Positions 10,206 to 31,116 of a stretch of 31,116 bases of DNA are shown here, piece by piece. The stretch's first letter is position 1, and each line of letters starts with the position of its first letter. The notes under the pieces are model-generated. The model was given only the letters and a program-made list of their open reading frames with translations, was not told the origin of the DNA and made no database searches. The stretch lies in IMG/VR virus record IMGVR_UViG_2690316344_000014, one strand, 5' to 3'. A program made the translations under genes and the position numbers. The stretch is from a virus. Lineage: Duplodnaviria; Heunggongvirae; Uroviricota; Caudoviricetes.

Positions 10206-10214
10206 ACTCTCACC

Positions 10215-14072: not shown

Positions 14073-14077
14073 AACGG

Positions 14078-15540: not shown

Positions 15541-15719
15541 AGCATCCTCACGATAATATCCGGGTAGGCGCGATCACTTTCGTCTACTCCGTTACAAAGC
15601 GAGGCTGGGTATTTCCCGGCCTTTCTGTTATCCGAAATCCCCTGAAAGCACAGCGGCTGGCTGAGGAGATAAATAATAAACGGGGAGCTGTATGCACAAA
15701 GCATCTCCCGTTGAGTTAA
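15531..15719 (+). CDS. lambda orf61-like small early protein
   Basis: 62 aa immediately after exo, the position of lambda orf61. Product unknown. Confidence 0.55.
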
Positions 15720-15883
15720 GAACGAGTATCGAGATGGCACATAGCCTCGCTCAAATTGGAGTCAGGTTTGTGCCAATACCAGTAGAAACAGACGAAGAAT
15801 TTCATACGTTAGCCGCATCCCTTTCACAAAAGCTGGAAATGATGGTGGCGAAAGCAGAAGCAGATGAGAGAGACCAGGTATGA
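15692..15883 (+). CDS. lambda orf63-like small early protein
   Basis: 63 aa, [63 protein letters not shown]. Position matches lambda orf63. Confidence 0.55.
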   Translation: MHKASPVELRTSIEMAHSLAQIGVRFVPIPVETDEEFHTLAASLSQKLEMMVAKAEADERDQV

Positions 15884-15959
15884 CAACCACTGAATGCATT
15901 TTTCTGGCAGCGGGCTTCATATTCTGTGTGCTTATGCTTGCCAACATGGGGCTTGTTCA

Positions 15960-16175
15960 ATGACACCTCAGCAAGAAAACGCCCTTCGCAGCATTGCCCG
16001 TCAGGCTAATTCTGAAATCAAAAAAGCCAGACAGCAGTTTCCGGATAAAAACGTCGATGACATTTGCCGTAGCGTACTGAAGAAGCACCGCGAAACGGTA
16101 ACGCTGATGGGATTCACACCGACTCATTTAAGCCTGGCGATCGGCATGTTAAACGGCGTCTTTAAGGAGCGATGA
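15960..16175 (+). CDS. lambda orf60a-like small early protein
   Basis: Internal start MTPQQENALRSIARQANSEIKKARQQFPDKNVDDICRSVLKKHRETVTLMGF...; position matches lambda orf60a. Confidence 0.5.
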   Translation: MTPQQENALRSIARQANSEIKKARQQFPDKNVDDICRSVLKKHRETVTLMGFTPTHLSLAIGMLNGVFKER

Positions 16176-16273
16176 ACATGAAAAGCAAAATCATCAGGGA
16201 GCTACAGGCTCCTTTTTTATTATTCGCATTCACCCTCAAGCGTATTAACCAACAATTCAGGGATTAATGGAAG

Positions 16274-16492
16274 ATGGCAGACATCATTGATTCAGCATCA
16301 GAAATCGAAGAATTACAGCGCAATACAGCAATAAAAATGCGTCGTCTGAACCACCAGGTTATATCTGCCACTCATTGTTGTGAGTGTGGCGATCCCATAG
16401 ATGAACGAAGACGCCTGGCCGTTCAGGGTTGTCGGACTTGTGCAAGTTGCCAGGAGGAGATCGAACTTAAGAACAAACAATGGGGATTGTGA
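16274..16492 (+). CDS. TraR/DksA-family C4 zinc-finger protein (lambda Orf73-like)
   Basis: 72 aa with CxxC-x17-CxxC (CCECGDPIDERRRLAVQGCRTCASC), the TraR/DksA C4-type zinc-finger layout. Phage homologues of this family are known to act on host RNA polymerase. Confidence 0.65.
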   Translation: MADIIDSASEIEELQRNTAIKMRRLNHQVISATHCCECGDPIDERRRLAVQGCRTCASCQEEIELKNKQWGL

Positions 16493-16539
16493 TGGCCTCA
16501 AAGCAGCAAATTTCAACATCGTCCAACTGAGGTGTAAAA

Positions 16540-16818
16540 ATGTTCAGAATCATTTTTCCTAACACCTGGTACGTCGACCACCACGGCACTCCCTGCAAAA
16601 TCCTGCGTTCTACCCACAACAAAGTTCACTACATCCGAAAAGGCAGAACATGTATCGCCAGCATGTTCCGCTTTAATCATGACTTTGAACCTGTGAATAA
16701 AGCTGATGCAGATCGGATAGCAGAAGAGATCGAAACGGCAGAACACATTAAGAAGTTACGTGACATGCGTTCAAAAAGCAGAGGTAACCATGGAATCATA
16801 CAGCCTCACACTCGATGA
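16540..16818 (+). CDS. small Cys/His-rich early-left protein (possibly Ea8.5-like)
   Basis: 92-aa ORF between the TraR-like gene and xis, with several His/Cys residues. Assignment is tentative, from position and size only. Confidence 0.4.
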   Translation: MFRIIFPNTWYVDHHGTPCKILRSTHNKVHYIRKGRTCIASMFRFNHDFEPVNKADADRIAEEIETAEHIKKLRDMRSKSRGNHGIIQPHTR

Positions 16819-17140
16819 GGCCTGTCAGTTTCTCAAGATATCCAGACCTACCGCTACCAACTGGATACGAACAGGCCGCCTACAGGCAACACGCAAAGAC
16901 CCCACTAAACTAAAATCTCCTTACCTCACAACACGACAAGCCTGCATTGCGGCGCTTCAGTCTCCGCTGCATACTGTCCAGGTGAGCGCGGGTGATGGCA
17001 TAACAGAGGAAAGAAAATGTCACTCTTCCGCAGAGGTGAAATATGGTACGCCAGTTTCACATTGCCGAACGGTAAAAGATTTAAACAGTCTCTTGGAACA
17101 AAGGACAAAAGGCAGGCGACAGAACTCCATGACAAGCTAA
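16790..17140 (+). CDS. xis: excisionase (Xis), HTH DNA-binding
   Basis: Internal start with a good SD (GAGGTAACC-ATG): [37 protein letters not shown]. Immediately upstream of int, but overlaps it by ~120 nt, so the true 3' end is uncertain and the gene may be frameshifted. Confidence 0.55.
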
Positions 17141-18180
17141 AGGCTGAAGCATGGCGGGTCAGCAAACTTGGTGAAATACCTGATATAACGTTCGAGGAAG
17201 CGTGTGTCAGGTGGCTTGAAGAGAAAGCACATAAAAAATCACTGGACGATGACAAAAGCCGGATCGGATTCTGGCTTCAACATTTCGCAGGAATGCAACT
17301 AAGAGACATTACTGAATCAAAAATTTATTCAGCAATGCAGAAAATGACGAACCGGCGTAATGAGGAAAACTGGAAACTCAGGGCAGAAGCATGCAGAAAA
17401 AAAGGGAAACCTGTTCCAGAATACAAGCCAAAACCAGCGTCTGTTGCAACGAAGGCTACGCATCTTTCATTTATAAAAGCCCTACTAAGAGCCGCAGAGC
17501 GTGAATGGAAAATGCTGGATAAGGCACCAATTATTAAAGTGCCTCAACCAAAGAATAAACGGATCCGCTGGCTGGAGCCCCATGAAGCACAAAGGCTGAT
17601 TGATGAATGTCCGGAGCCATTAAAGTCTGTTGTTGAATTTGCACTGGCAACAGGCTTAAGACGCTCGAACATCATCAACCTTGAATGGCAACAAATAGAT
17701 ATGCAGCGCCGGGTGGCATGGATAAACCCGGAAGAGAGTAAATCAAACCGCGCAATCGGCGTTGCGCTGAATGATACTGCATGTCGCGTATTGAAAAAAC
17801 AAATCGGGAATCATCACCGTTGGGTATTTGTGTACAAGGAAAGCTGTACCAAACCAGACGGAACGAAAGCGCCAACAGTAAGGAAGATGCGGTATGACGC
17901 AAACACAGCCTGGAAAGCGGCGCTGAGACGGGCTGGTATTGATGATTTCAGATTTCACGACTTGAGACACACCTGGGCAAGTTGGCTGGTTCAAGCCGGA
18001 GTCCCGTTGTCAGTGTTACAGGAAATGGGAGGCTGGGAGTCTATCGAAATGGTTCGTCGATATGCTCACCTTGCACCTAATCACCTTACCGAACACGCAC
18101 GGCAAATAGACTCGATCCTGAACCCATCGGTCCCAAATTTGTCCCAGTCAAAAAATAAGGAAGGTACTAATGATGTGTAA
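17017..18180 (+). CDS. int: prophage tyrosine integrase (DLP12 IntD-like)
   Basis: 387 aa with a C-terminal catalytic region ([42 protein letters not shown], i.e. HxxR ... Y). Ends 15 nt before the tRNA-Thr fragment and is convergent with it. Confidence 0.9.
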
Positions 18181-18194
18181 CTTATTGATTTAAA

Positions 18195-18243
18195 TGGTGC
18201 CGATAATAGGAGTCGAACCTACGACCTTCGCATTACGAATGCG
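18195..18243 (-). other. att core: 3' 49 nt of a tRNA-Thr(CGU) gene (thrW-like), not a complete tRNA
   Basis: Reverse complement is CGCATTCGTAATGCGAAGGTCGTAGGTTCGACTCCTATTATCGGCACCA: anticodon stem-loop (anticodon CGT), T-arm and CCA end. Sequence 5' of the anticodon stem does not continue as D-arm or acceptor stem. Confidence 0.8.
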
Positions 18244-18331
18244 TAAATTGATCTTGTAAAATCAATACCTATCGAATTTAAATGGATTTTTTGCCACAAT
18301 ATTGCCACAGTTCGTTAGGAATCAGACAGAA

Positions 18332-19405
18332 ATGGCGACTATACGCAAACGTGGTAACTACCAATGGGAAGCTCAAATCCGTAAACGTGGTTTTCCCTCT
18401 CAAACCAAAACCTTTAACACCAAAGTAGAAGCAGAAGCTTGGGCCAAAATGATCGAGTCAGAAATGGCGAGAGGAGTTTGGCTTAGCCGCAGCGAAGCGG
18501 AATCTACGACATTGTATGAAGCCCTAACGCGATATGAAAAAGAGATTGTTCCCGACAAAAAAGGGGCAGTGCAAGACCGATCATTGGTGCGGATACTAAA
18601 AGGCACTCAGCTGGCGAAAAACTATATGGCCAGCATCAGGAGTGCCGATGTCGCCAAGCTGAGAGATGAATGGTTGAAAATCTATGCTCCTGCAACCGTT
18701 TTAAGGCGTTTGGCCTTACTTTCTCATGTATTCAATGTTTCGCGGAAAGAATGGGGCATGGAGAGCCTGCTGAACCCCGTAGAGGCCATTCGCAAACCCC
18801 AACCCAAGAACTCCAGGACCAGACGCCTAGAAGCGCTGCCTGTAGTTTCTGAGAAAACCGGTGTTACGTCAGGAAAGCAAATAGCCAACGAGATCGAACA
18901 TATCATCGCCGCAACACATTCATTAGTATTGCCAGCAATCATTCTTCTGGCGTTAGAGACAGCCATGCGCCGTAGCGAAATCGCAGAGCTTCGATGGCGC
19001 TTTATCGATCTTGATCGGCGAGTTGCACATCTGCCGGATACTAAGAATGGTAATGCCCGCGATGTCCCTTTATCAACGAAAGCCATTACGATACTGTCCA
19101 GTCTCAAGGAACATTCTAAGCCAGCTGCTGATAAGGTTTTTGATATGCGTGCAGACGCGATTACCCGAGCTTTTGACCGAGCTGTAAAACGAGCCAGAGA
19201 ACGATACGAGAAAACAAACTCATTATGTGATGAATCTTTCCTTAAAGATTTAAGATTTCATGACCTTCGACATGAAGCAACTTCTCGACTTGCTGAAATT
19301 TTCCCTATGCATGAACTAACCAAAATTACAGGACATAAAGATCCAAGAATGCTAATGCGGTATTATCATCCAAAAGCTGAAGATTTGGCGTTAAAGTTGA
19401 AATAA
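18332..19405 (+). CDS. second tyrosine site-specific integrase/recombinase
   Basis: MATIRKRGNYQWEAQIRKRGF... with C-terminal catalytic residues (RRSE, LRFHDLRHEATSRL, MLMRYYH). The ORF can start at 18302. Lies just across the att fragment from the prophage int. Confidence 0.85.
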   Translation: MATIRKRGNYQWEAQIRKRGFPSQTKTFNTKVEAEAWAKMIESEMARGVWLSRSEAESTTLYEALTRYEKEIVPDKKGAVQDRSLVRILKGTQLAKNYMASIRSADVAKLRDEWLKIYAPATVLRRLALLSHVFNVSRKEWGMESLLNPVEAIRKPQPKNSRTRRLEALPVVSEKTGVTSGKQIANEIEHIIAATHSLVLPAIILLALETAMRRSEIAELRWRFIDLDRRVAHLPDTKNGNARDVPLSTKAITILSSLKEHSKPAADKVFDMRADAITRAFDRAVKRARERYEKTNSLCDESFLKDLRFHDLRHEATSRLAEIFPMHELTKITGHKDPRMLMRYYHPKAEDLALKLK

Positions 19406-19414
19406 GGACGTTGT

Positions 19415-20305
19415 ATGGATTATAAAAATAAGTTAGTTGATGCATCACCAAAATTAAACAACCCTCAACTATTGGCTATAATATACTTAATACCTTTTGG
19501 ATACTTGATTGTAGAAAACCCATTATGGCTAGAAAATATATACATTGCCGCTCCAATTTTCCTATCATCTATAGCTTTATTAACCAGTGTATACATAGGA
19601 TATCGTGATTTATTAAATAAAGTATTTAATAATGCAGTAGTTAAATGGGGCGTAACTGGCTTTACATATTCCGTATGCTTATGGATCGCAAAGTTTAAGC
19701 TTGACATAGCTTATGGTATAGTCCCAGAAAACCTTAATTACTCGACATTAGCTTATGCTTTCATGCTCTCATTTCCAATAGGGGCAATGATTTGTGCAAT
19801 TACAGTCTATATATACATATTTTTGCGAGATGTATCCCCAGCAAAAATAGTAATATCCTCTATGATTTCAGTATATATTGGAAGCTTGGCTCAACATCAT
19901 ATACAGGTGAACAATCTTCCTGAAAAAATAATATTAATAGGACTTATAATTATGGTCCCCTATAACATGGTCAATTTAGCTAGTTCATTAGTTATTAAAA
20001 GGAAATTTAATTTTAATCGTTTAGTATCAGGCTTATCCCTTTTTGCTGTGTCAGTTGCTCTTTTTATTATTAGCATGACAGCAATGAAATACATTGAAAG
20101 ATTTCAAGAAAAGTTTATTTTTCTCGATGCAAGAACATCTACGACATGTGGTAGCTCAGAAAGCAAATCTCTTTATATTGAAAAAAATGAAAATCAGTGT
20201 TATAAAATATCAGGAAATAAATTCTCGGAGTTAAGACTAACTCTTGTAGATAAAAACATCTTGAATATAAATAATAAAGGCACTTCAACTTATGAACAAA
20301 AATAA
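19415..20305 (+). CDS. hypothetical polytopic inner-membrane protein
   Basis: 296 aa, AT-rich codon usage, multiple long hydrophobic segments (LLAIIYLIPFGYLIV, AAPIFLSSIALLTSVYIGY, LIGLIIMVPYNMVNLASSLVI, LSLFAVSVALFIISM). No family recognised. Confidence 0.6.
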   Translation: MDYKNKLVDASPKLNNPQLLAIIYLIPFGYLIVENPLWLENIYIAAPIFLSSIALLTSVYIGYRDLLNKVFNNAVVKWGVTGFTYSVCLWIAKFKLDIAYGIVPENLNYSTLAYAFMLSFPIGAMICAITVYIYIFLRDVSPAKIVISSMISVYIGSLAQHHIQVNNLPEKIILIGLIIMVPYNMVNLASSLVIKRKFNFNRLVSGLSLFAVSVALFIISMTAMKYIERFQEKFIFLDARTSTTCGSSESKSLYIEKNENQCYKISGNKFSELRLTLVDKNILNINNKGTSTYEQK

Positions 20306-20519
20306 CCCTGCTAATTCATTTTCTATAGAAGCAAGGAAAGAAGCTTTTCGGAGAGCTGAAGCCAGTCTTTTTTATCAAGTAAAGATCCCAAAGGCTCCTC
20401 ATTTTTTAATGAAATAAAAACTAAGGTAATCAATGGAGAGCTAACCTATGAAGAGGCAAAGAGAGAAGTATTAAATTATCACATTGAACAATCTAAAAAT
20501 CAAAATAAAAAAGGCTAAC
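20292..20519 (+). pseudogene. small ORF split by a frameshift at a T6 run (41-aa 5' part plus 3' part in another frame)
   Basis: MNKNNPANSFSIEARKEAFRRAEASLFYQVKIPKAPHFLMK-stop. Adding one T at the T6 run (20405-20410) restores a 75-aa ORF ending ...NGELTYEEAKREVLNYHIEQSKNQNKKG. Function unknown. Confidence 0.3.
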
Positions 20520-20539: not shown

Positions 20540-20752
20540 CTAGTGAGCTATTTTATAGTCCCTTAATGCATTTTTAAGTAACTCCGTTTGCTCATCAGCA
20601 TCATCATAATTATAAATTCCCGTAGCAGAATAATACTCTTCGATGCATAGAATATTTATCAATGGTTCACAAATCTCTTTAATAAACTCCTTGTTGTTAT
20701 CGGCAAAAATAATTTTTATTCCTTCCAAAACAAAGCTATTATAATCAGCCAT
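20540..20752 (-). CDS. hypothetical small acidic protein
   Basis: 70-aa ORF 70 nt downstream of trbL on the same strand. No recognisable family. Confidence 0.4.
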   Translation of the reverse strand: MADYNSFVLEGIKIIFADNNKEFIKEICEPLINILCIEEYYSATGIYNYDDADEQTELLKNALRDYKIAH

Positions 20753-20782
20753 TATCCACCTCCTTACAGGTGTTTAGTGGAA

Positions 20783-20814
20783 GCGTCAGTTAACGTTACC
20801 GCGCTAACTGACGC
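20783..20814. repeat. hairpin: 10-bp inverted repeat with 12-nt loop between trbL and the 70-aa ORF
   Basis: GCGTCAGTTA (20783-20792) and TAACTGACGC (20805-20814). No flanking U-run. Confidence 0.3.
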
Positions 20815-20821
20815 GCCTAAA

Positions 20822-22225
20822 TCAAGATTTTTTACTGCCAGTTAAACTATCACCCTCAAACTCATCCTGTTCGTGGTTAGTCTGACGATCGGCTGTGTGT
20901 TTACGTATTTGATTCGCTATTTCCCCACCAACGGTCTGTTGTCTTCGGATAGTATTAGTACTTCCCTTCATCATCTGATACTCCGAAGCTCCGTTAGACA
21001 ACCCGCTCGCCATGTGAGAAGCCATGCGGCCAGCTCGTGAGAATGATGAAGCAAACCCCTGGCTTCCTCCGCTGACGCTACCTGTATTACTCCCTGCAGA
21101 AGAACCACCGGAACCGCCTGATGGTTGTCCTCCAGAAGTATCTACGGAACCGGTATCTTCCCCTCCGCCAAATCCTCCACCTGAACCACCTTTATCACCA
21201 GAACCAGATTCTTCGGCCATCGCCGCTTGTGCAGATTCAAATGCTGCTTTTAGAGCGGAAGCACCACCACTGACTTGAGCTGTAGCACTTATTGCCATTG
21301 CCCCAGCGCCACTGATTGCAGTAGTAGCAGCGCCAGTAATCATACCTGCTCCAAAACCACCGATCCCTTGTAAGGACGCTCCTCCAACAACGCCTGATAA
21401 CAACAACGGTAATTTATTCGTCAATACTAAAAGAATAATTGACGCCAGAAGTAAAACAATAAGACTATTAAGATCAGGAATATCATTTTTAATAATAGAA
21501 AAATACTGATCTATAAATGATTGCCCAATCCCAATGATTAATGTCATCGTAAATAACTGAATACCAATCGATAATACTGTGCGTAAGTAATTTATTGCTA
21601 TATCAGAAGTCCATTTCGAGCCACCAAACCCAAGCAAAATAACTCCTGCATAACACAACACCCATGCAGAAACTAACATTATTAGCATATTTATCGCGAT
21701 AAGCGCCATTACTACTAATACTATTATCGCGACGGTTATCATAATGGTCGAAATCATTGGAGACCAAATTGATGCTGCTGAACTGACCTTTGTTAATATC
21801 ACAAATGCCATATCCACTATGCTGGAGGGTGAAATACCAGTACTTGTTCCTAAAGCATTTGCTGCAAGTTGTCTCATTGAGTTAATTATAGATTGTGATA
21901 TGGCTGGGCCGTTGATTAAAAGATAATAAAAAAAACCAATCACGGCAAAAAAACGAACTATTTCTGCAAGTGCACTGATTAAACCTTCCCCTTGCATCGC
22001 CAACATACCAAATGTCCAAACCATACTTATTAATACCACCCCCCAGAAGAGCCAATTTGCATAATCACCAATTACTAATGACCATGTGCTGGCTACTTGC
22101 TGAAACTTATCTAATAACGTATCAAGTAATCCGCTACTATCTAATTGACCAGCATAAGCATTTACAGAAAACAAAAAAAACATTCCTAAAAAAGTGAGCT
22201 TGCTTACTATTCTCATAATTACCAT
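20822..22225 (-). CDS. trbL: P-type conjugative transfer protein TrbL/VirB6
   Basis: 467 aa. N-terminal signal plus multiple transmembrane helices, then a C-terminal Gly/Ser-rich low-complexity tail (GGSGGGFGGGEDTGSVDTSGGQPSGGSGGSSAGS), typical of TrbL. Confidence 0.8.
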   Translation of the reverse strand: MVIMRIVSKLTFLGMFFLFSVNAYAGQLDSSGLLDTLLDKFQQVASTWSLVIGDYANWLFWGVVLISMVWTFGMLAMQGEGLISALAEIVRFFAVIGFFYYLLINGPAISQSIINSMRQLAANALGTSTGISPSSIVDMAFVILTKVSSAASIWSPMISTIMITVAIIVLVVMALIAINMLIMLVSAWVLCYAGVILLGFGGSKWTSDIAINYLRTVLSIGIQLFTMTLIIGIGQSFIDQYFSIIKNDIPDLNSLIVLLLASIILLVLTNKLPLLLSGVVGGASLQGIGGFGAGMITGAATTAISGAGAMAISATAQVSGGASALKAAFESAQAAMAEESGSGDKGGSGGGFGGGEDTGSVDTSGGQPSGGSGGSSAGSNTGSVSGGSQGFASSFSRAGRMASHMASGLSNGASEYQMMKGSTNTIRRQQTVGGEIANQIRKHTADRQTNHEQDEFEGDSLTGSKKS

Positions 22226-22392
22226 TCTCGCTTAGGGCTAGGATTGTTATTGCCACGCAGGGCACATTTATCGTAGTTATGTTCGTTCAATTTATTCTCT
22301 GGCGTCGATAAACAATCTTCATCTTTTTTATCGCAAGAGCATAGAATTAATGAAATTATTAGAATAAAAATGACCAAAAGTTTATCTTTCAT
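22219..22392 (-). CDS. small putative lipoprotein in the TrbK (entry-exclusion) position
   Basis: Found by hand (57 aa, below the ORF-track cut-off): MKDKLLVIFILIISLILCSCDKKDEDCLSTPENKLNEHNYDKCALRGNNNPSPKREW. Hydrophobic N-terminus followed by Cys; sits between trbJ and trbL as trbK does in IncP plasmids. Confidence 0.45.
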   Translation of the reverse strand: MKDKLLVIFILIISLILCSCDKKDEDCLSTPENKLNEHNYDKCALRGNNNPSPKREW

Positions 22393-22403: not shown

Positions 22404-23198
22404 TCACCAAATTCGCTTCGGGCTTGGTGTGTTCTCGCCAGCTAACGCTTTTTCATCAGCGACTATTTGTTGGGCTTCTTTATCAGCCTCAGCCTGTGCC
22501 AGTGTTGCTGCAGCGTTTTGCTGAGCTACCAGAAGCGAGCGGATTTGCAGCAACTGGTTCGTTTGAGCACTGGCAAGCTGGTTAGCGGCCTGAATAGCTT
22601 CCATTTGCCCTTGTGCGCCGGTTGCCTGCGTTTGTAAATCTGCAAGGTTGTCAGCATCGCTTTGCAGTGTTTCCTGCTGTTCGTCAAGAGCCTTAAATAC
22701 AGCGTCATTGGCCTTTTTACGTGCCTCAGAGCTGTTCTGTTCAGCTTTGCGCAGTGCGCTAATTTCATCCGCAGTACATTCAACATTACTGTTAAAGCAC
22801 GGTGATGAGCGGTAGTAATTCACGTCCTGATAACGTTTCAGATATGAATCAAGACTCCCGGCCTGGTTTTTGTAGTAATTTAGGGTGTCCTGCGCCTGCA
22901 ACAATTTGTTGATGGTCGAATTGGCCTGATCCCAGATATAGGCTGCAGGTGCGACTGTATTTTTGAGCATGTTTTCATACTGCTGCAGCTGCGTCTGGTA
23001 CTGCTGGATCTGTTTTGCCACAGCCTGAACGTTGTTGACTGCGCTGATTGTGGTCTGCACCACATTAGTACCATCGATTACAGGGATACCGGCTGTCGCC
23101 GGTAATGCCATGATGGACGCCAGGAAGGAAGCAGCTAATGATTTTTTAGCTGCTAAAATCCCTCTCAGTGATGAAAATACTCGGAGCATTAACTTCAT
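22404..23198 (-). CDS. trbJ: P-type conjugative transfer protein TrbJ (VirB5-like)
   Basis: 264 aa, signal peptide then a coiled-coil-rich Q/A-rich sequence (QIQQYQTQLQQYENMLKN ...). The trbJ-trbK-trbL order is conserved. Confidence 0.75.
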   Translation of the reverse strand: MKLMLRVFSSLRGILAAKKSLAASFLASIMALPATAGIPVIDGTNVVQTTISAVNNVQAVAKQIQQYQTQLQQYENMLKNTVAPAAYIWDQANSTINKLLQAQDTLNYYKNQAGSLDSYLKRYQDVNYYRSSPCFNSNVECTADEISALRKAEQNSSEARKKANDAVFKALDEQQETLQSDADNLADLQTQATGAQGQMEAIQAANQLASAQTNQLLQIRSLLVAQQNAAATLAQAEADKEAQQIVADEKALAGENTPSPKRIW

Positions 23199-23279: not shown

Positions 23280-23645
23280 TTATTTATTCAAGATTCTATC
23301 CATAATATTTCTTAGTTCTTGTCTGGTTGATTCTATTTTAGCAAGCAACGTTTTTATCAATGAGGGTGAAAAATCAACTGTGCGTGGATCGTTAGCTAAC
23401 CACAGTTTAAGTAACCCACCAAGTCGACCAAGATCAGCATTTACTCGGCTAAGCTCTACAACCTGTTCAATATCTACCATAGACTCAACCTGATAACCCA
23501 TTGCTACTTTACGAATGAAACTCGCTACACTTAAGCCAGATGCTTCTGCATTATCCTGGATTTGCGCTTTTTCATCTGGCAAACAATAAACTTTAATTGG
23601 TGTACTATTTTTTCTAGTCTGAGAAACGGTCATATCATTCTCCAT
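23280..23645 (-). CDS. traJ: relaxosome accessory oriT-binding protein, TraJ/MobC family
   Basis: 121 aa with PIKVYCLPDE and DLGRLGGLLKLWL motifs resembling RP4 TraJ / the MobC family. Sits immediately beside an RP4-like oriT. Confidence 0.75.
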   Translation of the reverse strand: MENDMTVSQTRKNSTPIKVYCLPDEKAQIQDNAEASGLSVASFIRKVAMGYQVESMVDIEQVVELSRVNADLGRLGGLLKLWLANDPRTVDFSPSLIKTLLAKIESTRQELRNIMDRILNK

Positions 23646-23660
23646 ACAGGCGGTAGCCGA

Positions 23661-23765
23661 TCAGCCTCGCAGAGCAGGACTCCGTTGAGCAGCTCAGCTG
23701 CGAATAAGGGAAGGTAAAGTAGAAGCACCGTTTACGGTGGGCCTACTTTACATATCCTGCCCTAC
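23661..23765 (+). other. origin of transfer (oriT), IncP/RP4 type, with TraJ-binding inverted repeat and nic site
   Basis: CAGCCTCGCAGAGCAGGACTCCGTTGAGCAG ... GCGAATAAGGGAAGGTAAAGTAGAAGCACCGTTTACGGTGGGCCTACTTTACATATCCTGCCC closely parallels the RP4 oriT as I recall it from mob vectors. Inverted repeat GTAAAGTAG (23714-23722) / CTACTTTAC (23743-23751), then the ATCCTG/C nick consensus at 23754-23760. Confidence 0.8.
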
Positions 23766-23915
23766 ATTTGCCGTTGTGAATCTGTGTACGTATTGTGTAT
23801 TCCTGTGTACTCAGTGTGTTTTCCTAAAGCATTTGTGCAGGATTAGTAGTGTAAAAATGTGCAGCATATGTGTTTATTGGAATGGAAATTATTTGAATGA
23901 CCCTAAGAGATATTT

Positions 23916-24197
23916 TTATTCTCGCGGCTTGGGTTTTGGCGGCCTGCCACGTTTCCTTTGACATCTATTTATCTCTTTCGCTATATCGTCATTTTCTGTC
24001 TTTGACTCAACAGATTTATCTATCCAGTCCTTAACATCTTCTTTACGCCAGAGAAGACGTTTATTACCGGGAAGACGGCATCTTGGTGGAAGACATTTTG
24101 GATTTCGCGTTGCATCACTGCGGATACTTTTTACAGTTTTCTTTAATGCAAAAGCCAACTCTTCAACGGTTATAAGTTCTGGCATAACTGATTTCAT
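23916..24197 (-). CDS. alpA: AlpA-family DNA-binding protein (excisionase/transcriptional regulator-like)
   Basis: MKSVMPELITVEELAFALKKTVKSIRSDATRNPKCLPPRCRLPGNKRLLWRKEDVKDWI, the AlpA/MerR-like winged-HTH pattern, with a basic C-terminal tail. The ORF can start at 24209. Confidence 0.7.
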   Translation of the reverse strand: MKSVMPELITVEELAFALKKTVKSIRSDATRNPKCLPPRCRLPGNKRLLWRKEDVKDWIDKSVESKTENDDIAKEINRCQRKRGRPPKPKPRE

Positions 24198-24231
24198 CGA
24201 AGAACCCATCTCTCAGTAGAAATTTGAGGAT

Positions 24232-24259
24232 TTTAGCGGCTAAAATTTTAGCCGCTAAA
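24232..24259. promoter_or_regulatory. 28-bp perfect palindrome immediately upstream of alpA
   Basis: TTTAGCGGCTAAAA-TTTTAGCCGCTAAA, 23 nt upstream of the longest alpA start. Candidate operator. Confidence 0.45.
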
Positions 24260-24509
24260 GTTTGCTAACCAACGTTATGAATTGAGAATAATTAAAACTT
24301 ACTGGCAAAAAGAATAATGTCAACAGGGTTTTTATTCATCGGATTCTTACTCCATATGAAATTGGTTTTATTGACCGATTTCTGAATGACACTAAGGTTT
24401 TAATAATTCCTTTAATCTTTTTGGTTATATAAAAGGTTAAAGATCAGGTTAGAGAGGTGTGGAAAAGCGATATATTCACTTGTTTACTATGACAATTTTA
24501 AATTATATC

Positions 24510-24572
24510 CGTACCTCAAATGTCATGAAAGCGTACCTCATATGTCATAAAGGCGTACCTCATATGTCATAT
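24510..24572 (+). repeat. three tandem ~22-bp direct repeats (iteron-like)
   Basis: CGTACCTCAAATGTCATGAAAG, CGTACCTCATATGTCATAAAGG, CGTACCTCATATGTCATAT, head to tail. Confidence 0.7.
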
Positions 24573-24615
24573 AATAAAAAATAAGCAAACAAGTTATACA
24601 CAATATTATTAACAG

Positions 24616-24865
24616 AATCTGTGGATAAATACACAGATTATACATGATAAAATAGATTGTTTAGCTAAACTAAATAACAATAAATAAAATGAAACAAAAT
24701 GTAAATAACAGGGGGGGGGGTGTAAGTGACTTATAAATTTGGTTAGCTAACCTTTATAAGAAACACTGTTTGTAAATGATTCATTTCTGACAACGGATAT
24801 ATCGAATTTGAGTAAGAAAAACACTTCAACTAACCTTACTCTCTGATTTGTTTAGCTAAACAAAT
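24616..24865. promoter_or_regulatory. cluster of palindromes upstream of the higA-like gene, three sharing a TTAGCTAA core
   Basis: AATCTGTG-n8-CACAGATT (24616-24639); GTTTAGCTAAAC (24659-24670); CTTATAAA-ttt-GGTTAGCTAACC-TTTATAAG (24730-24760); ATTTGTTTAGCTAAACAAAT (24846-24865, 20 bp perfect). Confidence 0.5.
24711..24720. repeat. G10 homopolymer tract
   Basis: Ten consecutive G in an otherwise AT-rich intergenic region. Confidence 0.9.
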
Positions 24866-24889
24866 TACTGTAAGGAATCCGATGACGTT

Positions 24890-24904
24890 AAAAAAAAGGG
24901 GGGG
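24890..24904 (+). repeat. A8G7 homopolymer tract overlapping the ribosome-binding site of the higA-like gene
   Basis: AAAAAAAAGGGGGGG ends 2 nt before the ATG at 24907. Confidence 0.9.
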
Positions 24905-24906: not shown

Positions 24907-25164
24907 ATGAGGACAATAAATGCTGCACCTTCAACTGTCGGAGAGATTTTATACGAAGAATTCTTGAAACCATTGGATATGCCTCCCGCAAGACTTGCTG
25001 AACTGATGGATACATCATATGAAAAAATTTGGGAAATAATTAAAAATGAGCGAAATATAACTCTTGAAGAAGCTATTCAACTCTCGATAATTTTCAATAC
25101 AGATGCATCTTTTTGGGTGAAACTGCAAGAGCTACATGAGGCATGGTTTAATAAACAAAAGTAA
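24907..25164 (+). CDS. HigA-like XRE-family HTH protein (antitoxin-like / transcriptional regulator), apparently orphan
   Basis: 85 aa, MRTINAAPSTVGEILYEEFLKPLDMPPARLAELMDTSYEKIWEIIKNERNITLEEAIQLSIIFNTDASFWVKLQ, the HigA/VapI-type pattern. No HigB/RelE-like ORF found on either side. Confidence 0.7.
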   Translation: MRTINAAPSTVGEILYEEFLKPLDMPPARLAELMDTSYEKIWEIIKNERNITLEEAIQLSIIFNTDASFWVKLQELHEAWFNKQK

Positions 25165-25819: not shown

Positions 25820-27082
25820 TCAAATTTTCTTTTTAGCGATAAAAATACAGTAAAAATATAAGGTTTTGATAATGTGATTAATGCTGTGCACCTCGCGAAA
25901 TAATAGTAATAGCTTCCTCATAAAAGACATGAAACTAAGTTCGTTGTATTTAGTGCGTTCCATTCCTTCCTTAGCGAAATAGTAGGTTATCATCTGAATT
26001 GACTCTTTATATTCATATTTATAATGTGCAATGCCATTTCGCAGCTTGTTGTCTAAAGCATTGAGATCAACTATATAAAAGCTATCATCCAATCCGCTTA
26101 TTTTCGTGCCTAAATCAACGTTTGCATATTCGTTGAGACTAGAAAAACCTTTAATTAAATCGCCTTTTTTATTTAGTCTTACTGAATCGTCAAAAATATT
26201 ATGATCTCCGCGTTTTAATAAGTTATTCAATCCGGCCACAATTATTAATTGCCGAGAGAATACTTCAGATAAGTCTTTGTAAAAATTGTTACAGTCATCA
26301 AATTCGGCAGTTGAAACTCGAGCAGGAATCATTGATAAATCTACGTTTTTATCATAATCATAGTAAAGCGCTGGGCGTGAAGGGAGTTCAAAGTCAAGCA
26401 TTTTGGGATATAGGCTTAAACAATCGAAATGCAAACTTTTCAGAAACCCACTTCCAATAATATCATCTAAAAATTTATTTAGCTGTTTTGGATGATTTTT
26501 CTGAATATAATGAAGAAATTGTGGCATTTTTTCACTAATTTCAGCATTATGTGCATGTATTGTAAAGGGAAATGACATTGCAGAGGTTGCTGTATAAAGT
26601 GCGGAAAGGATATCTTGTATTTTTAGCGAACGAGGTTTTTTCAGAGTAGGTAATTCTTTCATTAGGTTACTGAAAGTATTGTAATTTCCTTGTTTGTATT
26701 GAGTAATGAGTCGCTGGAGCTTATCGCGATGTTTATAAATATAATTCATTCCATTTAGATGTGCGTTCAGCATTAAGTATTTTTCATGACCTATTGCACT
26801 TGTTATTTTTAAGAATGCTGTTTTTCCTATTTCGTATTTTCCAAAGCCTACGGGAAAATCTAAATGCAAATCGATGAATGGATTTGTTGTGCCAAAGTCA
26901 TTGCTTTCTACAGTTTCCGCACCGTTAAATACAGGCTCTCCCTCCCCAAGAGTAAACGATATATTATTCTCACAATTTGGACATGCAAATTGGAACGGTT
27001 GTATGTCTCGATTAGACATACCTATTCTTGTATCAATGACCGTGTCACATACAAGGCATTTAAATTGCTGTAAAAAATTCAT
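25820..27082 (-). CDS. hypothetical protein with N-terminal zinc-ribbon (CxxC ... CxxC), 420 aa
   Basis: MNFLQQFKCLVCDTVIDTRIGMSNRDIQPFQFACPNCEN: Cys9/Cys12 and Cys34/Cys37. AT-rich; no family recognised by eye. Confidence 0.6.
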   Translation of the reverse strand: MNFLQQFKCLVCDTVIDTRIGMSNRDIQPFQFACPNCENNISFTLGEGEPVFNGAETVESNDFGTTNPFIDLHLDFPVGFGKYEIGKTAFLKITSAIGHEKYLMLNAHLNGMNYIYKHRDKLQRLITQYKQGNYNTFSNLMKELPTLKKPRSLKIQDILSALYTATSAMSFPFTIHAHNAEISEKMPQFLHYIQKNHPKQLNKFLDDIIGSGFLKSLHFDCLSLYPKMLDFELPSRPALYYDYDKNVDLSMIPARVSTAEFDDCNNFYKDLSEVFSRQLIIVAGLNNLLKRGDHNIFDDSVRLNKKGDLIKGFSSLNEYANVDLGTKISGLDDSFYIVDLNALDNKLRNGIAHYKYEYKESIQMITYYFAKEGMERTKYNELSFMSFMRKLLLLFREVHSINHIIKTLYFYCIFIAKKKI

Positions 27083-27329
27083 AAATATTTTATTAATCCT
27101 ATAAATTATAAGTTAAGTATTAGTCTTTTATCTACAAACCAAAGCCACTTTACTACTTTACCTAACTGCACTTTAAACAATCATAAGTTCTTTTTTTTTA
27201 AAAAGGTAGTCCAAAGATACCAATTTATTCAATATCAACGAGAATTCGAGACTCCTATGTGAGTAAAAAACTATGAGCTTCATGCCATGCTTTCAATAAA
27301 TGTCTTCAGTTACCCATAAATTTACTGGA

Positions 27330-27857
27330 TTAACAATTTGTAGTCTTTCCGACCAAATTACCGCGCGCAGTGTGACCCCATACTTTAGATGTCACCTTAT
27401 CTCTTTCCACTAGTTGTTTACGGTGCATCAAATCGGCAAGCAGTATTGAAACAAAGAACATGAATTTTGTTTTGGGAGTATTAGGAACATCTTTGGGTCC
27501 AAGCCAAGGTAGCTGCTCCAGTTGATTTTGTATTTTGGGTGTTGCGAAGCTAACACCATTCCAACTATGCCCAAAAGCATTTCTAATGCTACGCAGTGTG
27601 TTTAGTTCTTTGTATTCGTGTTCCATTATCAGTCCTAACGCATATGCTAAGCCTGTTCTAGCAGCAAAAGATGATAAAGGCGCTGTTGCACCATTCAGTA
27701 GACCTTTAGCTACTTTGTCATTTAACAGGTGAGCCTGGATGATCTCGGATAACCACTCATCGAAAATGGATGCTGCTATTAGAACAGAGCCACGATCTGA
27801 TTCTTTATTTAGTTCGGACAAAAATTGACCGAGTTCAATTTGGGTTTTATCACTCAC
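27330..27857 (-). CDS. HEPN/MtlR-like protein with Rx4H motif (candidate RNase-type toxin or abortive-infection protein)
   Basis: 175 aa. The N-terminus (GSVLIAASIFDEWLSEIIQAHLL) resembles the MtlR/HEPN helical fold; RNAFGH (R92-x4-H97, nt 27567-27584) fits the HEPN Rx4-6H motif. Confidence 0.5.
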   Translation of the reverse strand: MSDKTQIELGQFLSELNKESDRGSVLIAASIFDEWLSEIIQAHLLNDKVAKGLLNGATAPLSSFAARTGLAYALGLIMEHEYKELNTLRSIRNAFGHSWNGVSFATPKIQNQLEQLPWLGPKDVPNTPKTKFMFFVSILLADLMHRKQLVERDKVTSKVWGHTARGNLVGKTTNC

Positions 27858-28371
27858 AGACTCTGGAACTCCTTTCTCAAAAATTCAACATGAGGACGCT
27901 TCGGTCGCACATCAATCTTAACCATTAGATTATGAAATTGTGTTAGGTCTGGGTCAAACTATGAACAAAAACAGAAAAAATTATTGTGACGTTATTTAGG
28001 GGGACCTACAATGACACATTTTAAACAATTACTTTAATATCAATAAATTGGATCGTATTACTGTGTTCCTATTATTGGTTTAGCTCAGCTTGTCGCTCAC
28101 AGCGGACCTTCAGCTCGATAGCAAGTCCGCTCCGTTGGAGTGCCAGATGCGCTCTAAATTTGATGGCTAGTATTGAAGAGATACTTGGGCATCATGGTTA
28201 TGGTGTAAATACCGTCTGTGATACCCGCAGAGGTGCTAGGTTTAGGCACTGAGAAGGATACATTGAACATGAATTCAGAGTGATGTAACACAAGTCATAG
28301 AAAATTAGTGATTTATATTGAAAAGGGGGCTATTTTATTAAAGCAAGGCCGCCTTTAGGCAGCCTCTTATT

Positions 28372-29049
28372 TTACATGTAGATATTCATTAAACTGTCAA
28401 ATAGTCTTTTGGTTAACTCTTTTTCCGCTCGTGCTTCGATTTGAGCCATACCATTTCGGAAGAGTTTTAATTTACCGCTAAATTCTTGGTCATGAATAGT
28501 ACATGTCAATCGATCAAGTCTCATTTTTTTGTGAATAAGCTCATCTTTGAAATATTTTTTAAGATCGCTGGTACTATTAATTTGCATCTTGGCAAGAGCA
28601 AATTCAGCAACTTGAATTTGAGATACATCTAGTTGCACTATATTAAGTGTCAACTCTGTGTTTAAAGAACTGAACCATATGAACGGGTCAATCTCAATCT
28701 CTTCTAAGCTGGTACCAAGACCAAGGTTTTTTACCAGTGCCTGAGCAAATGGTTTAAGTGTTCTCGGTGGATTATCAATAAGTAAAACTGGGGTGTATTG
28801 TTCGTCAAAACTGAAAGATGTTACTCTATATTCAATGCGTTCAACAGCGGTACTGTTGCCGTATAGATTACTTATTCTATCTTCGCTAATTATCTTTTCG
28901 ATGAAGCGAGCGTGAAAATGAGATGTTCGTGATTTATCAAATATAAACCCTTTCCCTTTCTCTTCAGTAAAAGGATCACGCATGAGTTTTTCAACTGTTT
29001 CACTAGTAGTGAAACGATTGTTGAGTTTAATCCATTTAAATTTTTTCAT
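28372..29049 (-). CDS. hypothetical protein, gene C of a coupled three-gene operon
   Basis: 225-aa ORF whose start overlaps the last 14 nt of the upstream gene. AT-rich; no recognisable motif. Confidence 0.6.
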   Translation of the reverse strand: MKKFKWIKLNNRFTTSETVEKLMRDPFTEEKGKGFIFDKSRTSHFHARFIEKIISEDRISNLYGNSTAVERIEYRVTSFSFDEQYTPVLLIDNPPRTLKPFAQALVKNLGLGTSLEEIEIDPFIWFSSLNTELTLNIVQLDVSQIQVAEFALAKMQINSTSDLKKYFKDELIHKKMRLDRLTCTIHDQEFSGKLKLFRNGMAQIEARAEKELTKRLFDSLMNIYM

Positions 29050-30115
29050 GCTCTTCCACCTTTTTACCCGTCACGATATTATAGGCGTCTGCTGCTGACT
29101 GTTCAATTAGTAGGCTGATTTTCTTCTTTTCAACTTCATTTGCTGCACGAATAGTAACATTGTATCCACTACCTTTTTGGTTATTGATTCCTTTAATTTG
29201 ATAGGAAAAATCAGAGCAATTTTCTGAATCCTTAAAGAAAGCTTCAACCAAAATCCTGTCTCCTATTCCGTTTTTAGGTTTAGCAGACCAAGCAATTCTT
29301 CCAATATAGTATCCTTTGTTATGTAGTTGGGTGAAAATAGCAGAACTATTAACAGAATCACCTTTTAGAACCGCTTTTTTTACGAATCCTGTCTCGATTT
29401 CTTCTTCTTCCTCGTCATCACCTTTGCTTGTTGAACGGTTAAGCTCTACATTAGTAACGTCGTCAATTTCATATCCACTCAAGCCGCCCATAACCTCTTG
29501 AAAAAACTGACTTCTTAGCGCTGGTGTAGGAATCGCTTCTAAAGAAATTTCAAACTTTTCAACATCAACGGATTTAATCTTTGACAACTCTTTTTGTAAT
29601 AGTGTTATTACATCTTTAGCCTTTTGGTTCTGAGGCATACGAATATCAACATTATCGTTATTTACAGTAAGATCAATCTTGATGTTTCGGTTGTCTATCT
29701 GACGCAATGCTGTTCTGGACAAGTCTACTTCTTGGTAGTTTACCTCGATTGCTAAAGACCCATCTTTTTTCGCAGTGATTTTTACTGTTTCACCAGAGCC
29801 AGTGGCTAATTTTCTTTTAACTAACTCTGCTGCTGTTTTTAATTCCGTCTGAGAGGATGATGCTTGAAGCTTGACGCTAGTTATACTCTCTCTTTTATCA
29901 TAAGTTTGTACAAGTTCCTTAATAGAATCTAGATCACTATATCCCTGAGGTAGTTTGCAAACCTCTTCAATTAATTCCTCCTTTGTTAAGTCTTGAGCAA
30001 CAATAATACCTTTCCGTAATAATATCTCGCGTAATCTTGCGATGGTAATTCGTTTATGATGAAGTGCATCATATATATTTTTGTCAGTTGCGAAATAAAT
30101 ATTCATGTTATTCAT
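29036..30115 (-). CDS. hypothetical protein, gene B of a coupled three-gene operon
   Basis: 359 aa with an acidic stretch (GDDEEEEEIE). Its ATG overlaps the upstream stop by 1 nt (TAATG). No family recognised. Confidence 0.6.
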   Translation of the reverse strand: MNNMNIYFATDKNIYDALHHKRITIARLREILLRKGIIVAQDLTKEELIEEVCKLPQGYSDLDSIKELVQTYDKRESITSVKLQASSSQTELKTAAELVKRKLATGSGETVKITAKKDGSLAIEVNYQEVDLSRTALRQIDNRNIKIDLTVNNDNVDIRMPQNQKAKDVITLLQKELSKIKSVDVEKFEISLEAIPTPALRSQFFQEVMGGLSGYEIDDVTNVELNRSTSKGDDEEEEEIETGFVKKAVLKGDSVNSSAIFTQLHNKGYYIGRIAWSAKPKNGIGDRILVEAFFKDSENCSDFSYQIKGINNQKGSGYNVTIRAANEVEKKKISLLIEQSAADAYNIVTGKKVEEHEKI

Positions 30116-31116
30116 TAACGTTGCTCCATGCCTATAGCTTCAAGACTATATTGAATTACCATTGCAGCTGTTTTTTCGAATGCAACTTTTGAAAACAAAC
30201 GTTCACTTTCGCCTGATAGCCAATGGGCACTATATTTTTGCTTTGCTCTTTCAAAGTGATGAATGGAGTCTTCATGCGGATTTATATGACAATGTCTAAT
30301 TTTTATTCTTTTTGCATCAGTCAGTATTTGATAATTAGAAAGCATGTCAAGGAAATAGATGAACTCATCTTCACTATTCCCTGGTTGATTATAATAAATT
30401 ACGTAACCACTATCTTCTTTTTCACCCATCCAATCGAATTCTTCATGCTTTATTATTATGAATGGTGATGTTAAGACCTCAACAGTAGCTGCAGTCTTAT
30501 TGTTGATAGGATGTTTTATCCTAGTTAGTGCTAAGTCTGGGTAATAGAAATAGTACAAATCTGGTTGAGGTAAAGCCCCGGTACCAATAAGCATTTTAAT
30601 ATCTGATGCTATATTTATCATATCGGATATTTTGAATGGATCTAAAAGGTGTAATTTTATGTTTGGGGGGCATTTTATTATTTCAGGGTCGACTTTCTTC
30701 ATCACGGATGAGTAAAAATCCTTGTCATAAAGGTTGTCATGATTATAGAGAAATAATAAACCTCGAACTTTGTAACCTAATGACTCATCCCGCACATATC
30801 GTTTACACCACTGTTGGCTAATGTTGGCGCATTCTGTAGCGAGAGCTAAAGAAGAAAGTGCACCTTCTACCATCCCTTTGCCGATACTACTTTGAGCATA
30901 GCTTTTGAGGTCTGTGTTCAAGTACACAATCTCTTCTTCATAAGGATCGGTATAGTAAAACACCACATCGCTAGGATGTGTTTTTTTGTCATGAGCCTCT
31001 AGGTCGCAATCCCAGTTCATATCTTGACTAGTAGCTCGTTGCCATTTGAAAATTTTAAAAATATCTTGGGTTATCTTATTTGCAACATGCTGTATTGAAG
31101 AGGTCTCTCCGCCCAT
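30115..31116 (-). CDS. hypothetical protein, gene A of a coupled three-gene operon; possible PD-(D/E)xK nuclease-like motif; start at or beyond the window edge
   Basis: At least 333 aa. The ORF reaches the last base of the window, where an ATG lies. A hydrophobic strand ending in Asp (DVVFYYTD57) is followed by EIVYLNTD69-L-K71, a pattern like restriction-endonuclease-fold motifs II/III. Confidence 0.55.
   Translation of the reverse strand: MGGETSSIQHVANKITQDIFKIFKWQRATSQDMNWDCDLEAHDKKTHPSDVVFYYTDPYEEEIVYLNTDLKSYAQSSIGKGMVEGALSSLALATECANISQQWCKRYVRDESLGYKVRGLLFLYNHDNLYDKDFYSSVMKKVDPEIIKCPPNIKLHLLDPFKISDMINIASDIKMLIGTGALPQPDLYYFYYPDLALTRIKHPINNKTAATVEVLTSPFIIIKHEEFDWMGEKEDSGYVIYYNQPGNSEDEFIYFLDMLSNYQILTDAKRIKIRHCHINPHEDSIHHFERAKQKYSAHWLSGESERLFSKVAFEKTAAMVIQYSLEAIGMEQR

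Follow-up and report, generated by a model that had tools for sequence, protein, structure and literature searches.

A putative IncP/RP4-type origin of transfer on a relaxase-less integrative element of the GIsul2/PIME kind in Escherichia coli

The stretch of DNA analyzed here (31,116 nucleotides, referred to below as the window) comes from IMG/VR record IMGVR_UViG_2690316344_000014, filed as a virus of the Caudoviricetes, and is part of an Escherichia coli chromosome. A DLP12-like lambdoid prophage occupies positions 1-18180, and a separate island of about 13.6 kb in total runs from 18194 to the end of the window and beyond. A first-pass annotation, made from the sequence alone, had placed an RP4/IncP-type origin of transfer (oriT) in this island, at 23661-23765, next to a gene described as TraJ/MobC-like. 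Our analysis agrees with both the type of site and its location, and leads us to the view, held with a probability of about 0.8, that it serves an integrative mobilizable element of the GIsul2/PIME kind as origin of transfer. Its layout is a conserved trait of an already described family of elements, and is not specific to this one island.

GIsul2 and its relatives encode IncP-1-related TrbJ, TrbK and TrbL proteins and no relaxase, and have been proposed to use IncP helper plasmids and to reshape their mating apparatus (PMC5704250). The PIME family comprises 1136 elements, with a core of int, alpA, replicase, trbJ and trbL genes (Perta et al., bioRxiv 10.64898/2026.01.12.698999, January 2026). 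PIMEs have an IncP-like oriT with a conserved nick site (nic), and are excised and mobilized in the presence of IncP helpers; one of them, PIME1 of E. coli RHB23-C07, lies beside guaA and possesses traJ but no traI (bioRxiv 10.64898/2026.01.12.698999).

The core of the site is the sequence ACATATCCTGCCC at plus-strand positions 23750-23762, with ATCCTG at 23754-23759. The nick consensus YATCCTG/Y (the slash marks the nick) is matched by TATCCTG/C at 23753-23760, and the RP4-equivalent nick is predicted from this match to fall between G23759 and C23760 of the plus strand, as the first-pass annotation had it. The inverted repeat that it described ahead of ATCCTG/C is also present (coordinates of all features are given in Table 1). 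This repeat is imperfect, its arms being 76% complementary and separated by a loop of 2 nt, and lies 5′ of nic; folded as single-stranded DNA, it has a dG of -13.8 kcal/mol (z = -3.3 vs. shuffled sequences). The geometry is that of IncP origins, in which the nic-proximal arm of an imperfect 17-19-bp repeat stands at a short fixed distance 5′ of nic and traJ lies on the repeat side, transcribed away from nic. The TraK-binding curved region and the traK gene expected on the leading side of such an origin were not found: there is no TraK match, and homology to plasmid oriTs, which begins at 23646, about the start of traJ, ends near 23777, some 18 nt past nic. The homologous region is thus slightly wider than first annotated.

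In BLAST searches, the segment 23640-23800 matched 395 plasmids, mostly of conjugative MOBP/IncP types. The oriT was 92% identical (E = 3e-48) to that of the pCFSA664-2-type IncP-1-like plasmids found in E. coli and Salmonella (41-60 kb), 82% identical over 114 nt (E = 4e-20) to that of the authentic RP4 record, and 74% identical to that of R751. These similarities are far above chance, and the alignments to both RP4 and R751 contain no insertion or deletion between the right repeat arm and nic. The Rfam family traJ-II (RF01760) covers 23663-23762 over its full length, at 93.1 bits (gathering score 40; E = 1.4e-17); the RK2/RP4 member of this family is an experimentally defined oriT (PMC6206304).

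Comparison of 11 island copies showed the right arm to be invariant in 14 of 17 columns and the nick region in 11 of 12. The left arm, on the other hand, varies between copies without compensatory changes in the right arm, and we therefore rejected the idea of hairpin covariation in the inverted repeat. Since RP4 TraJ binds at its 19-bp inverted repeat (PMC7314908), a near-invariant right arm and nic next to an uncompensated left arm fits a protein-binding site rather than selection on pairing. At position -6 from nic (23754), the ATCCTG form was seen only in the window and two other sampled copies (that of strain STO_Bone1B, locus L001, and L017; all three are at least 99.5% identical over the 1.4-kb trbJ-traJ-oriT module), as it is in RP4 and R751. 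Every other sampled island copy has GTCCTG, including the otherwise near-identical flank from Enterobacter vonholyi, and so does the closest plasmid. This single-base change may shift which relaxases use the site. By its sequence, the site qualifies as a genuine IncP/RP4-type origin with its own TraJ.

A block of TGTGTA-type repeats to the right of nic is kept in all island copies, and the plasmids have no such block at the corresponding position. As a side observation, the reverse-complement motif ATACACA occurs in 3-4 copies just upstream of traK in pCFSA664-2; 30 of 41 aligned positions agree between the two sets of repeats, a figure to be taken as a lead only, as the shuffle control was made on a different segment and repeats inflate such scores.

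Of the conjugation genes, the island has kept only traJ, trbJ, a trbK-like gene and trbL, and these four share one strand. Profile and protein matches confirm this order, in which traJ is followed by trbJ-trbK-trbL and not by traI, as first annotated. TraJ is an intact ribbon-helix-helix protein of the NikA-like type, 73% identical to TraJ of pCFSA664-2 and 55% identical to that of RP4; the TraJ half of the earlier label therefore holds, and the MobC-like half does not. The trbK-like product is 22% identical to TrbK of pCFSA664-2 (E = 1e-5) and has a C-terminal motif in common with RP4 TrbK. The ratio of nonsynonymous to synonymous substitution rates (dN/dS) is 0.04-0.14 for traJ (dS 0.4-3) and, at dS of roughly 0.4-0.8, 0.06-0.14 for trbJ, 0.12-0.26 for trbL and 0.14-0.45 for the trbK-like gene. 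The module is under purifying selection.

The earlier statement that the window has no relaxase also stands, and can be extended. No relaxase was found in the window, in the complete island visible in STO_Bone1B (99.8% identical), within up to 18 kb on either side of the latter, or within up to 10 kb of any relative. In tblastn searches with 14 backbone proteins of pCFSA664-2 (TraI, TraG, TraF, TraK, TraL, TraM, TrbB, TrbE, TrbI, TrfA, Ssb, KorA, IncC and KorB), neither the window nor the 15 island loci collected gave a match to any of them. A simple deletion derivative of an IncP plasmid was considered as the source of the island and rejected, since traJ and trbJ lie on opposite strands in RP4 and pCFSA664-2 and on the same strand in the island.

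The arrangement is widespread. Of 5426 complete E. coli genomes, 222 (~4%) contain the trbJ-traJ-oriT segment over its whole length, with 84-99.9% identity and at several chromosomal loci; it occurs in the commensal strain E. coli HS as well. Among species-representative genomes, traJ-trbJ-trbK-trbL with identical gene spacing is present at nine loci in seven other genera (Enterobacter, with two species, Pseudescherichia, Erwinia, Dickeya, Shigella, Citrobacter and Phytobacter, plus a metagenome-assembled genome of the Enterobacterales) and again in E. coli HS, never with a relaxase. Two types of element were distinguished. In the guaA type (E. coli HS, L008-L012, L014 and L015), the order is guaA, int, a divergent regulator, a Pfam AlpA gene, sometimes RepA, oriT-traJ-trbJKL and cargo. 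The window type (the window, L001, L016, L017, L019 and the Enterobacter loci L006 and L007) has a different integrase, located at the trbL end, an alpA-like open reading frame (ORF) without a Pfam match beside oriT, no RepA homologue, and its cargo on the oriT-leading side.

We propose the following scheme for the window element. The island integrase would excise the element, and the island TraJ would bind the nic-proximal repeat arm, marking oriT. A MOBP relaxase (TraI) from a co-resident IncP-1-type plasmid would nick the plus strand at 23759/23760, and the coupling protein and type IV secretion system (T4SS) of this helper would export the strand 5′ to 3′. RP4 DNA is transferred 5′ to 3′, with the traK side of nic in the lead (PMC7314908). 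By this analogy, the alpA-like gene, the region of the replication origin (oriV) and operators described below, higA and the defence cargo would lead and traJ would enter last, which is the polarity proposed in the first-pass annotation. TrbJ, the TrbK-like protein and TrbL probably adapt the helper mating apparatus and exclusion, as was proposed for GIsul2 by analogy with SGI1 (PMC5704250). Lastly, the excised circle would be copied by the helper TrfA protein, under the control of helper KorA and KorB. This could explain why a replicating PIME lowers helper copy number and gives small colonies (bioRxiv 10.64898/2026.01.12.698999). For nicking, polarity, excision and transfer, the scheme borrows from RP4 biology and the PIME preprint.

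The involvement of TrfA, KorA and KorB is suggested by the gene-free stretch at 24230-24900, which contains motifs for three classes of IncP-1 binding site: KorB operators (OB), KorA operators (OA) and iterons. The tandem pair of exact KorB operators (TTTAGCSGCTAAA) is conserved in all window-type copies, and a further operator with one mismatch lies at 23145-23157, inside the 5′ end of trbJ, making three matches where 0.08 would be expected by chance. OB4 of RP4 and R751 shows this motif as well, in the traJ-traI spacers, the location given for RP4 OB4 in the literature (PMC7314908), and an OB is also found inside the trbJ 5′ end of RP4 and pCFSA664-2. The 12-mer of the exact KorA operators (GTTTAGCTAAAC) recurs in RP4 at the promoters of trfA and klaA, and in pCFSA664-2 at those of trfA and korA. 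Across the sampled island copies, the KorB and KorA operators keep their positions.

The third class consists of clustered TGACAnnTGAGG-type iteron cores. The minus-strand core TGACAt(a/t)TGAGG has three matches, vs. 0.05 expected, at 24514-24525, 24536-24547 and 24558-24569, i.e. with an exact spacing of 22 bp (the repeats span 24510-24575). In RP4 this core occurs ten times, always in oriV and including a cluster of five iterons at 22-23-bp spacing, and in pCFSA664-2 it is confined to a group of six iterons, spaced by exactly 22 bp, that comes just after trfA. The minus strand of 24423-24570 is colinear over 147 nt with positions 1968-2113 of the pCFSA664-2 oriV (BLAST E = 3.8e-15; local score 49 vs. 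11.3 +/- 1.5 for shuffled sequences), and this colinearity, which takes in the DnaA-box-like motif TTTTCCACA and the AACC repeats, is seen in the window and in L007. In five window-type copies, invariant positions make up 33 of 36 in the iteron cores and 4 of 20 in the spacers (Fisher p = 8e-8, in a test that is partly biased because the blocks were located by motif). In every PIME-type locus sampled, an OB stands at -613/-614 from nic and the leading side holds one or two more; except in L013, whose contig ends close to oriT, there are also 1-3 iteron-core motifs near the leading-side OB. The guaA-type elements share about two iterons with the window oriV, and not the rest of the origin.

As for the cognate genes, tblastn with the pCFSA664-2 proteins found no trfA, korA or korB in the window or in any island locus. 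Neither was a replicase found: the window, L001, L006 and L007 contain no homologue of RepA_HS, and Pfam, NCBIfam and PHROG scans of the island ORFs gave no replication family. The text of the 2026 PIME preprint makes no mention of TrfA, KorA, KorB or their operators (bioRxiv 10.64898/2026.01.12.698999). Going by these motifs, we consider it possible, at slightly under even odds, that, once the replicase-less island has been excised, helper TrfA replicates it from its IncP-type oriV, and that the island is wired into the KorA/KorB regulon of the helper.

Several observations bear on the identity of this helper. The inverted repeat is identical in the island and pCFSA664-2, TrbJ is 89% identical between the two, and trbJ reaches 94-95% DNA identity to IncP-type plasmids of 47-54 kb in E. 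coli. Together with the oriV layout and the low GC content of the pCFSA664-2 clade (45%), these similarities favour this clade over RP4. We therefore lean towards a low-GC IncP-1-like plasmid of the kind typified by pCFSA664-2, and not necessarily RP4, as the natural helper.

How closely does the element resemble those already described? With PIME1 and other PIMEs, it has in common a chromosomal location, traJ, trbJ and trbL, an IncP-like oriT without traI, a large defence cargo and a presumed dependence on IncP plasmids; of the PIME core, it has the integrase, trbJ and trbL and the IncP-like oriT, and lacks the replicase. The guaA-type relatives (E. coli HS, L015 and others) share the conjugation module, their TraJ proteins being 83-84% identical to that of the window element. 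The hallmarks of the PIME1 subfamily, namely a divergent alpA/luxR pair and insertion at guaA, are missing from the window element, which has no LuxR-type ORF (24260-24900 is gene-free) and sits at the tRNA gene thrW. It further differs from PIME1 in its own integrase, at the trbL end, in having no RepA/RepC homologue, Pfam AlpA or LuxR partner, in its oriV core with exact KorA and KorB operators, and in carrying its cargo on the leading side. Because the replicase, Pfam AlpA and LuxR partner are wanting, we treat it as a variant of the PIME kind and not as a strict PIME1 member. GIsul2 resembles it as an integrative element with IncP-1-related TrbJ, TrbK and TrbL and no relaxase or coupling protein; however, GIsul2 is inserted at guaA, encodes RepA, RepC and resistance genes, and has no relaxosome protein (PMC5704250), whereas in the window element both TraJ and an identifiable oriT are present.

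Among plasmids, RP4/RK2 and R751 share with the island the repeat and its spacing to nic, ATCCTG/C, the adjacent traJ, the leading-strand polarity and the KorB operator in the trbJ 5′ end. The island differs from them by the absence of traI after traJ and of traK-traL-traM, and by a TraJ only 55% identical to that of RP4. The pCFSA664-2-type plasmids share the repeat, the iteron core, its 22-bp spacing, the oriV layout, OA and OB, and GC content, but are complete and self-transmissible (with trfA, MOBP and MPF_T functions), carry GTCCTG at nic, and encode a TrbK only 22% identical to the island product. A parallel outside the IncP group is provided by SGI1 with the IncA/C plasmids, and by mobilizable genomic islands (MGIs) with the SXT/R391 integrative and conjugative elements (ICEs), which are likewise relaxase-less islands with a helper-like oriT. 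In the case of SGI1, the island T4SS subunits also replace those of the helper, and the island interferes with its helper (PMC5704250). These systems differ in their unrelated protein families and helper group, and SGI1 possesses a replicon of its own in place of a helper-type origin.

A number of observations weigh against this account. For the window element, all four steps, namely excision, nicking, transfer and replication, rest on inference. The suggestion in the first-pass annotation that IncP plasmids mobilize the island in trans agrees with the published dependence of the family, but meets a difficulty in the closest relaxase-less element tested: PIME1 of RHB23-C07 was induced to excise by the IncP-1 beta plasmid pB10 and the IncP-1 epsilon plasmid pKJK5, and was not mobilized by them (bioRxiv 10.64898/2026.01.12.698999). 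Its cloned oriT and traJ were also mobilized poorly, and the authors suggest another helper (bioRxiv 10.64898/2026.01.12.698999). As pB10 and pKJK5 excise this relative yet fail to mobilize it, failure of an RP4 helper to mobilize the window element would not refute IncP dependence. In the oriT itself, the conserved plasmid block CCAAGGAAAGTCTACAC to the right of nic, in the traJ promoter/TraK-binding region, is replaced in the island by the TGTGTA repeats, and a promoter scan of the leading side revealed no consensus promoter for traJ. In the oriV, the window copy carries TGAGGTAC where plasmid iterons carry TGAGGGGC, and the DnaA-box-like motif is not kept in the window-type copies L006 and L016. 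KorA and KorB being repressors, it is not obvious how their operators, placed before the alpA-like gene and higA, would account for excision induced by a helper, and the match of the alpA-like protein to phrog_66 ('excisionase and transcriptional regulator') is weak.

Co-occurrence of island and presumed helper is also sparse. An island and a clade plasmid were found together in one of the 5426 genomes, vs. about three expected, a difference that is not significant. In this genome, E. coli 2017.06.04CC (island L019, plasmid p20170604CC-2, L018), an ISKpn26-associated deletion at 14881-16045 of L019 has removed the 5′ part of traJ, oriT, the alpA-like gene, oriV and higA. As a single case, this deletion is suggestive of an incompatibility between the island cis sites and the clade plasmid.

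The same data lend themselves to a different explanation, in which the island acts primarily against plasmids: TrbK-like exclusion and sites titrating TrfA, KorA and KorB would make the host refractory to, or incompatible with, IncP-1-like plasmids, with oriT in a secondary role. Within the module, the trbK-like gene has been kept and evolves faster than the others, as seen in its divergence from plasmid TrbK and its dN/dS of up to 0.45, while iterons, OA and OB persist without their cognate proteins. The effect of a replicating PIME on helper copy number and colony size (bioRxiv 10.64898/2026.01.12.698999) would be expected, as would the rarity of genomes with both island and clade plasmid and the loss of the island cis sites in the one that has both. 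However, three single-copy chromosomal iterons make a weak titrator, the co-occurrence deficit lacks significance, and the conservation of traJ, the TraJ-binding arm and nic is left unexplained. We consider this explanation unlikely as an account of the site, while noting that the two roles are not exclusive, since SGI1 both uses and harms its helper.

It is less likely still that the island is an inert relic, an integrated IncP-1-like plasmid that has decayed and whose oriT, iterons and operators are functionless leftovers. Most plasmid genes are indeed absent, including the relaxase, the leading-side half of the plasmid oriT has been replaced, several copies are eroded by insertion sequences, and traJ is truncated in the Shigella flexneri copy. 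Decay would nevertheless not account for a four-gene fusion with identical spacing in eight genera and dN/dS of 0.04-0.26 at dS of about 0.5, nor for the strand arrangement of traJ and trbJ, which excludes a simple deletion. The nic region and the iteron cores are conserved next to spacers that diverge, cargo differs between near-identical backbones, and related elements excise and transfer experimentally (bioRxiv 10.64898/2026.01.12.698999).

Least probable of all is that the conserved 100 nt serve chiefly as a cis-regulatory RNA, the traJ-II 5′ leader of the traJ mRNA, for although Rfam classes traJ-II as cis-regulatory, the match is on the traJ-sense strand, Weinberg et al. rated traJ-II a likely RNA and the RP4 traJ transcript starts 24 nt beyond nic, so that the whole oriT core is transcribed (PMC7314908), the RP4 member is a defined oriT (PMC6206304), the uncompensated left arm argues against selection on base-pairing, conservation is strongest at the nick sequence, and a leader role can coexist with oriT function.

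The integrative mobilizable element itself is delimited by a 47-bp direct repeat corresponding to the 3′ part of thrW. A second exact copy of the repeat is found in STO_Bone1B at L001 31612-31658, about 0.7 kb past the end of the window, and the repeat sequence matches annotated tRNA-Thr genes in more than 5000 E. coli genomes. In the Enterobacter loci L006 and L007, an intact tRNA-Thr gene flanks the window-type element, and L006 has another copy of the repeat next to int. The element is thus inserted site-specifically at a tRNA gene in two genera. Its integrase is not of the guaA type, as Int_HS gives no match. The gene order from this end is: tyrosine integrase, small genes, trbL, trbK-like, trbJ, traJ, oriT, alpA-like, the gene-free A+T-rich stretch, higA and cargo.

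Table 1. Features of the island in the window (coordinates in the 31,116-nt stretch; the nick is marked by a slash).
Feature	Position	Strand	Evidence and remarks
47-bp att repeat, integrase-side end	18194..18240	-	3′ part of tRNA-Thr(CGU) thrW
Island tyrosine integrase	18302..19405	+	Pfam Phage_integrase 1.6e-26; 92% identical in Enterobacter L006
Probable type I toxin-antitoxin pair	20540..20818		70-aa ORF 20540-20752, minus strand; PtaRNA1 20746-20818, plus strand
trbL (VirB6-type)	20822..22225	-	Pfam TrbL 2e-29; 58% to pCFSA664-2 TrbL
trbK-like small lipoprotein, presumed entry-exclusion protein	22219..22392	-	Position, size, weak similarity
trbJ (VirB5-type)	22404..23198	-	89% to pCFSA664-2 TrbJ, 56% to RP4 TrbJ
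traJ, oriT-binding relaxosome accessory protein	23280..23645	-	Pfam NikA-like 6e-23; likely true start 23633
oriT core (predicted)	23646..23777	+	Repeat arms 23707-23731 and 23734-23758; TATCCTG/C at 23753-23760; nic 23759/23760
TGTGTA-type repeat block	23782..23823	+	21-nt tandem repeat, four motifs ~10-11 bp apart, right of nic
AlpA-like/excisionase-like small DNA-binding protein (weak support)	23916..24209	-	phrog_66 7e-6
Two tandem exact KorB operators	24232..24259		TTTAGCSGCTAAA; together a 28-bp palindrome
IncP-1-type oriV core	24423..24575	-	Three iterons, TTTTCCACA DnaA-box-like motif, AACC repeats
Two exact KorA operators	24659-24670, 24850-24861		GTTTAGCTAAAC; degenerate copy 24741-24752; upstream of higA
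HigA-family antitoxin	24907..25164	+	TIGR02607 2e-18; last conserved backbone gene before cargo
Variable cargo	25820..31116	-	420-aa protein, MltR-like regulator, PADLOC Hp3, Hp2 and Hp1 genes

The alpA-like ORF has no Pfam or NCBIfam match, whereas its E. coli HS counterpart scores 1e-12 with Pfam AlpA; its product is 80-93% conserved in the Enterobacter copies. Just downstream of trbL, a 70-amino acid (aa) ORF matching phrog_26407 is overlapped at its start by a PtaRNA1 antisense RNA (Rfam RF01811, 48.6 bits, gathering score 47, E = 2.8e-7), and the pair is probably a stability module of the island backbone. The higA gene is also present in island copies bearing other cargo, and sibling islands with otherwise near-identical backbones have different genes at the position of 25820-31116. 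In the window, the three co-directional genes at 28372-31116 match PADLOC Hp3, Hp2 and Hp1 nearly end to end (E = 3e-80, 2e-160 and 5e-176, respectively) and are a candidate three-gene anti-phage system, in line with the earlier placing of defence cargo on the leading side.

The neighbouring prophage encodes terminase, Nu1, Rz, lysozyme, porin, Q, a serine recombinase, RecT, an exonuclease and an integrase. The ORF of this integrase (from 17017) ends 14 nt before the 47-bp repeat of the island, giving the appearance of a tandem array at thrW-type att sites. In STO_Bone1B, yagP takes the place of the prophage, and the second repeat is followed by a CP4-like island with its own integrase (L001 31612-33143). 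The VbhA-family antitoxin ORF of STO_Bone1B corresponds to window positions 20291-20518, where there are stops within the first 23 codons; an indel or a coordinate offset could explain this.

The oriT itself is no longer new, being the design principle of a known family of IncP-dependent islands. What is new in this element is its integration at thrW, the fact that no replicase was found, and its helper-type oriV and Kor operators. The sites recognized by KorB also serve as the IncP-1 centromere. We would tentatively, and at less than even odds, describe the window-type element as a satellite built almost wholly of IncP-1-like cis sites, which borrows relaxase and T4SS, replication initiator, partition and global regulators from its helper. 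To find a TrfA-type origin together with exact operators for KorA and KorB, and none of the corresponding genes, suggests a direct wiring into the replication, partition and repression circuits of the helper. If true, this would offer a candidate route for the sensing of IncP plasmids and a reason for the drop in helper copy number, both of which are listed as open questions in the 2026 preprint (bioRxiv 10.64898/2026.01.12.698999).

Anti-phage defence genes travel from one enterobacterial species to another on islands of the GIsul2/PIME kind, and the cis sites described here nominate a specific and common low-GC IncP-1-like clade of E. coli and Salmonella plasmids as the helper. If this is correct, the pCFSA664-2 clade would be the missing mobilizing helper of the relaxase-less members, and the borrowing of the helper's replication initiator would represent a new level of plasmid parasitism.

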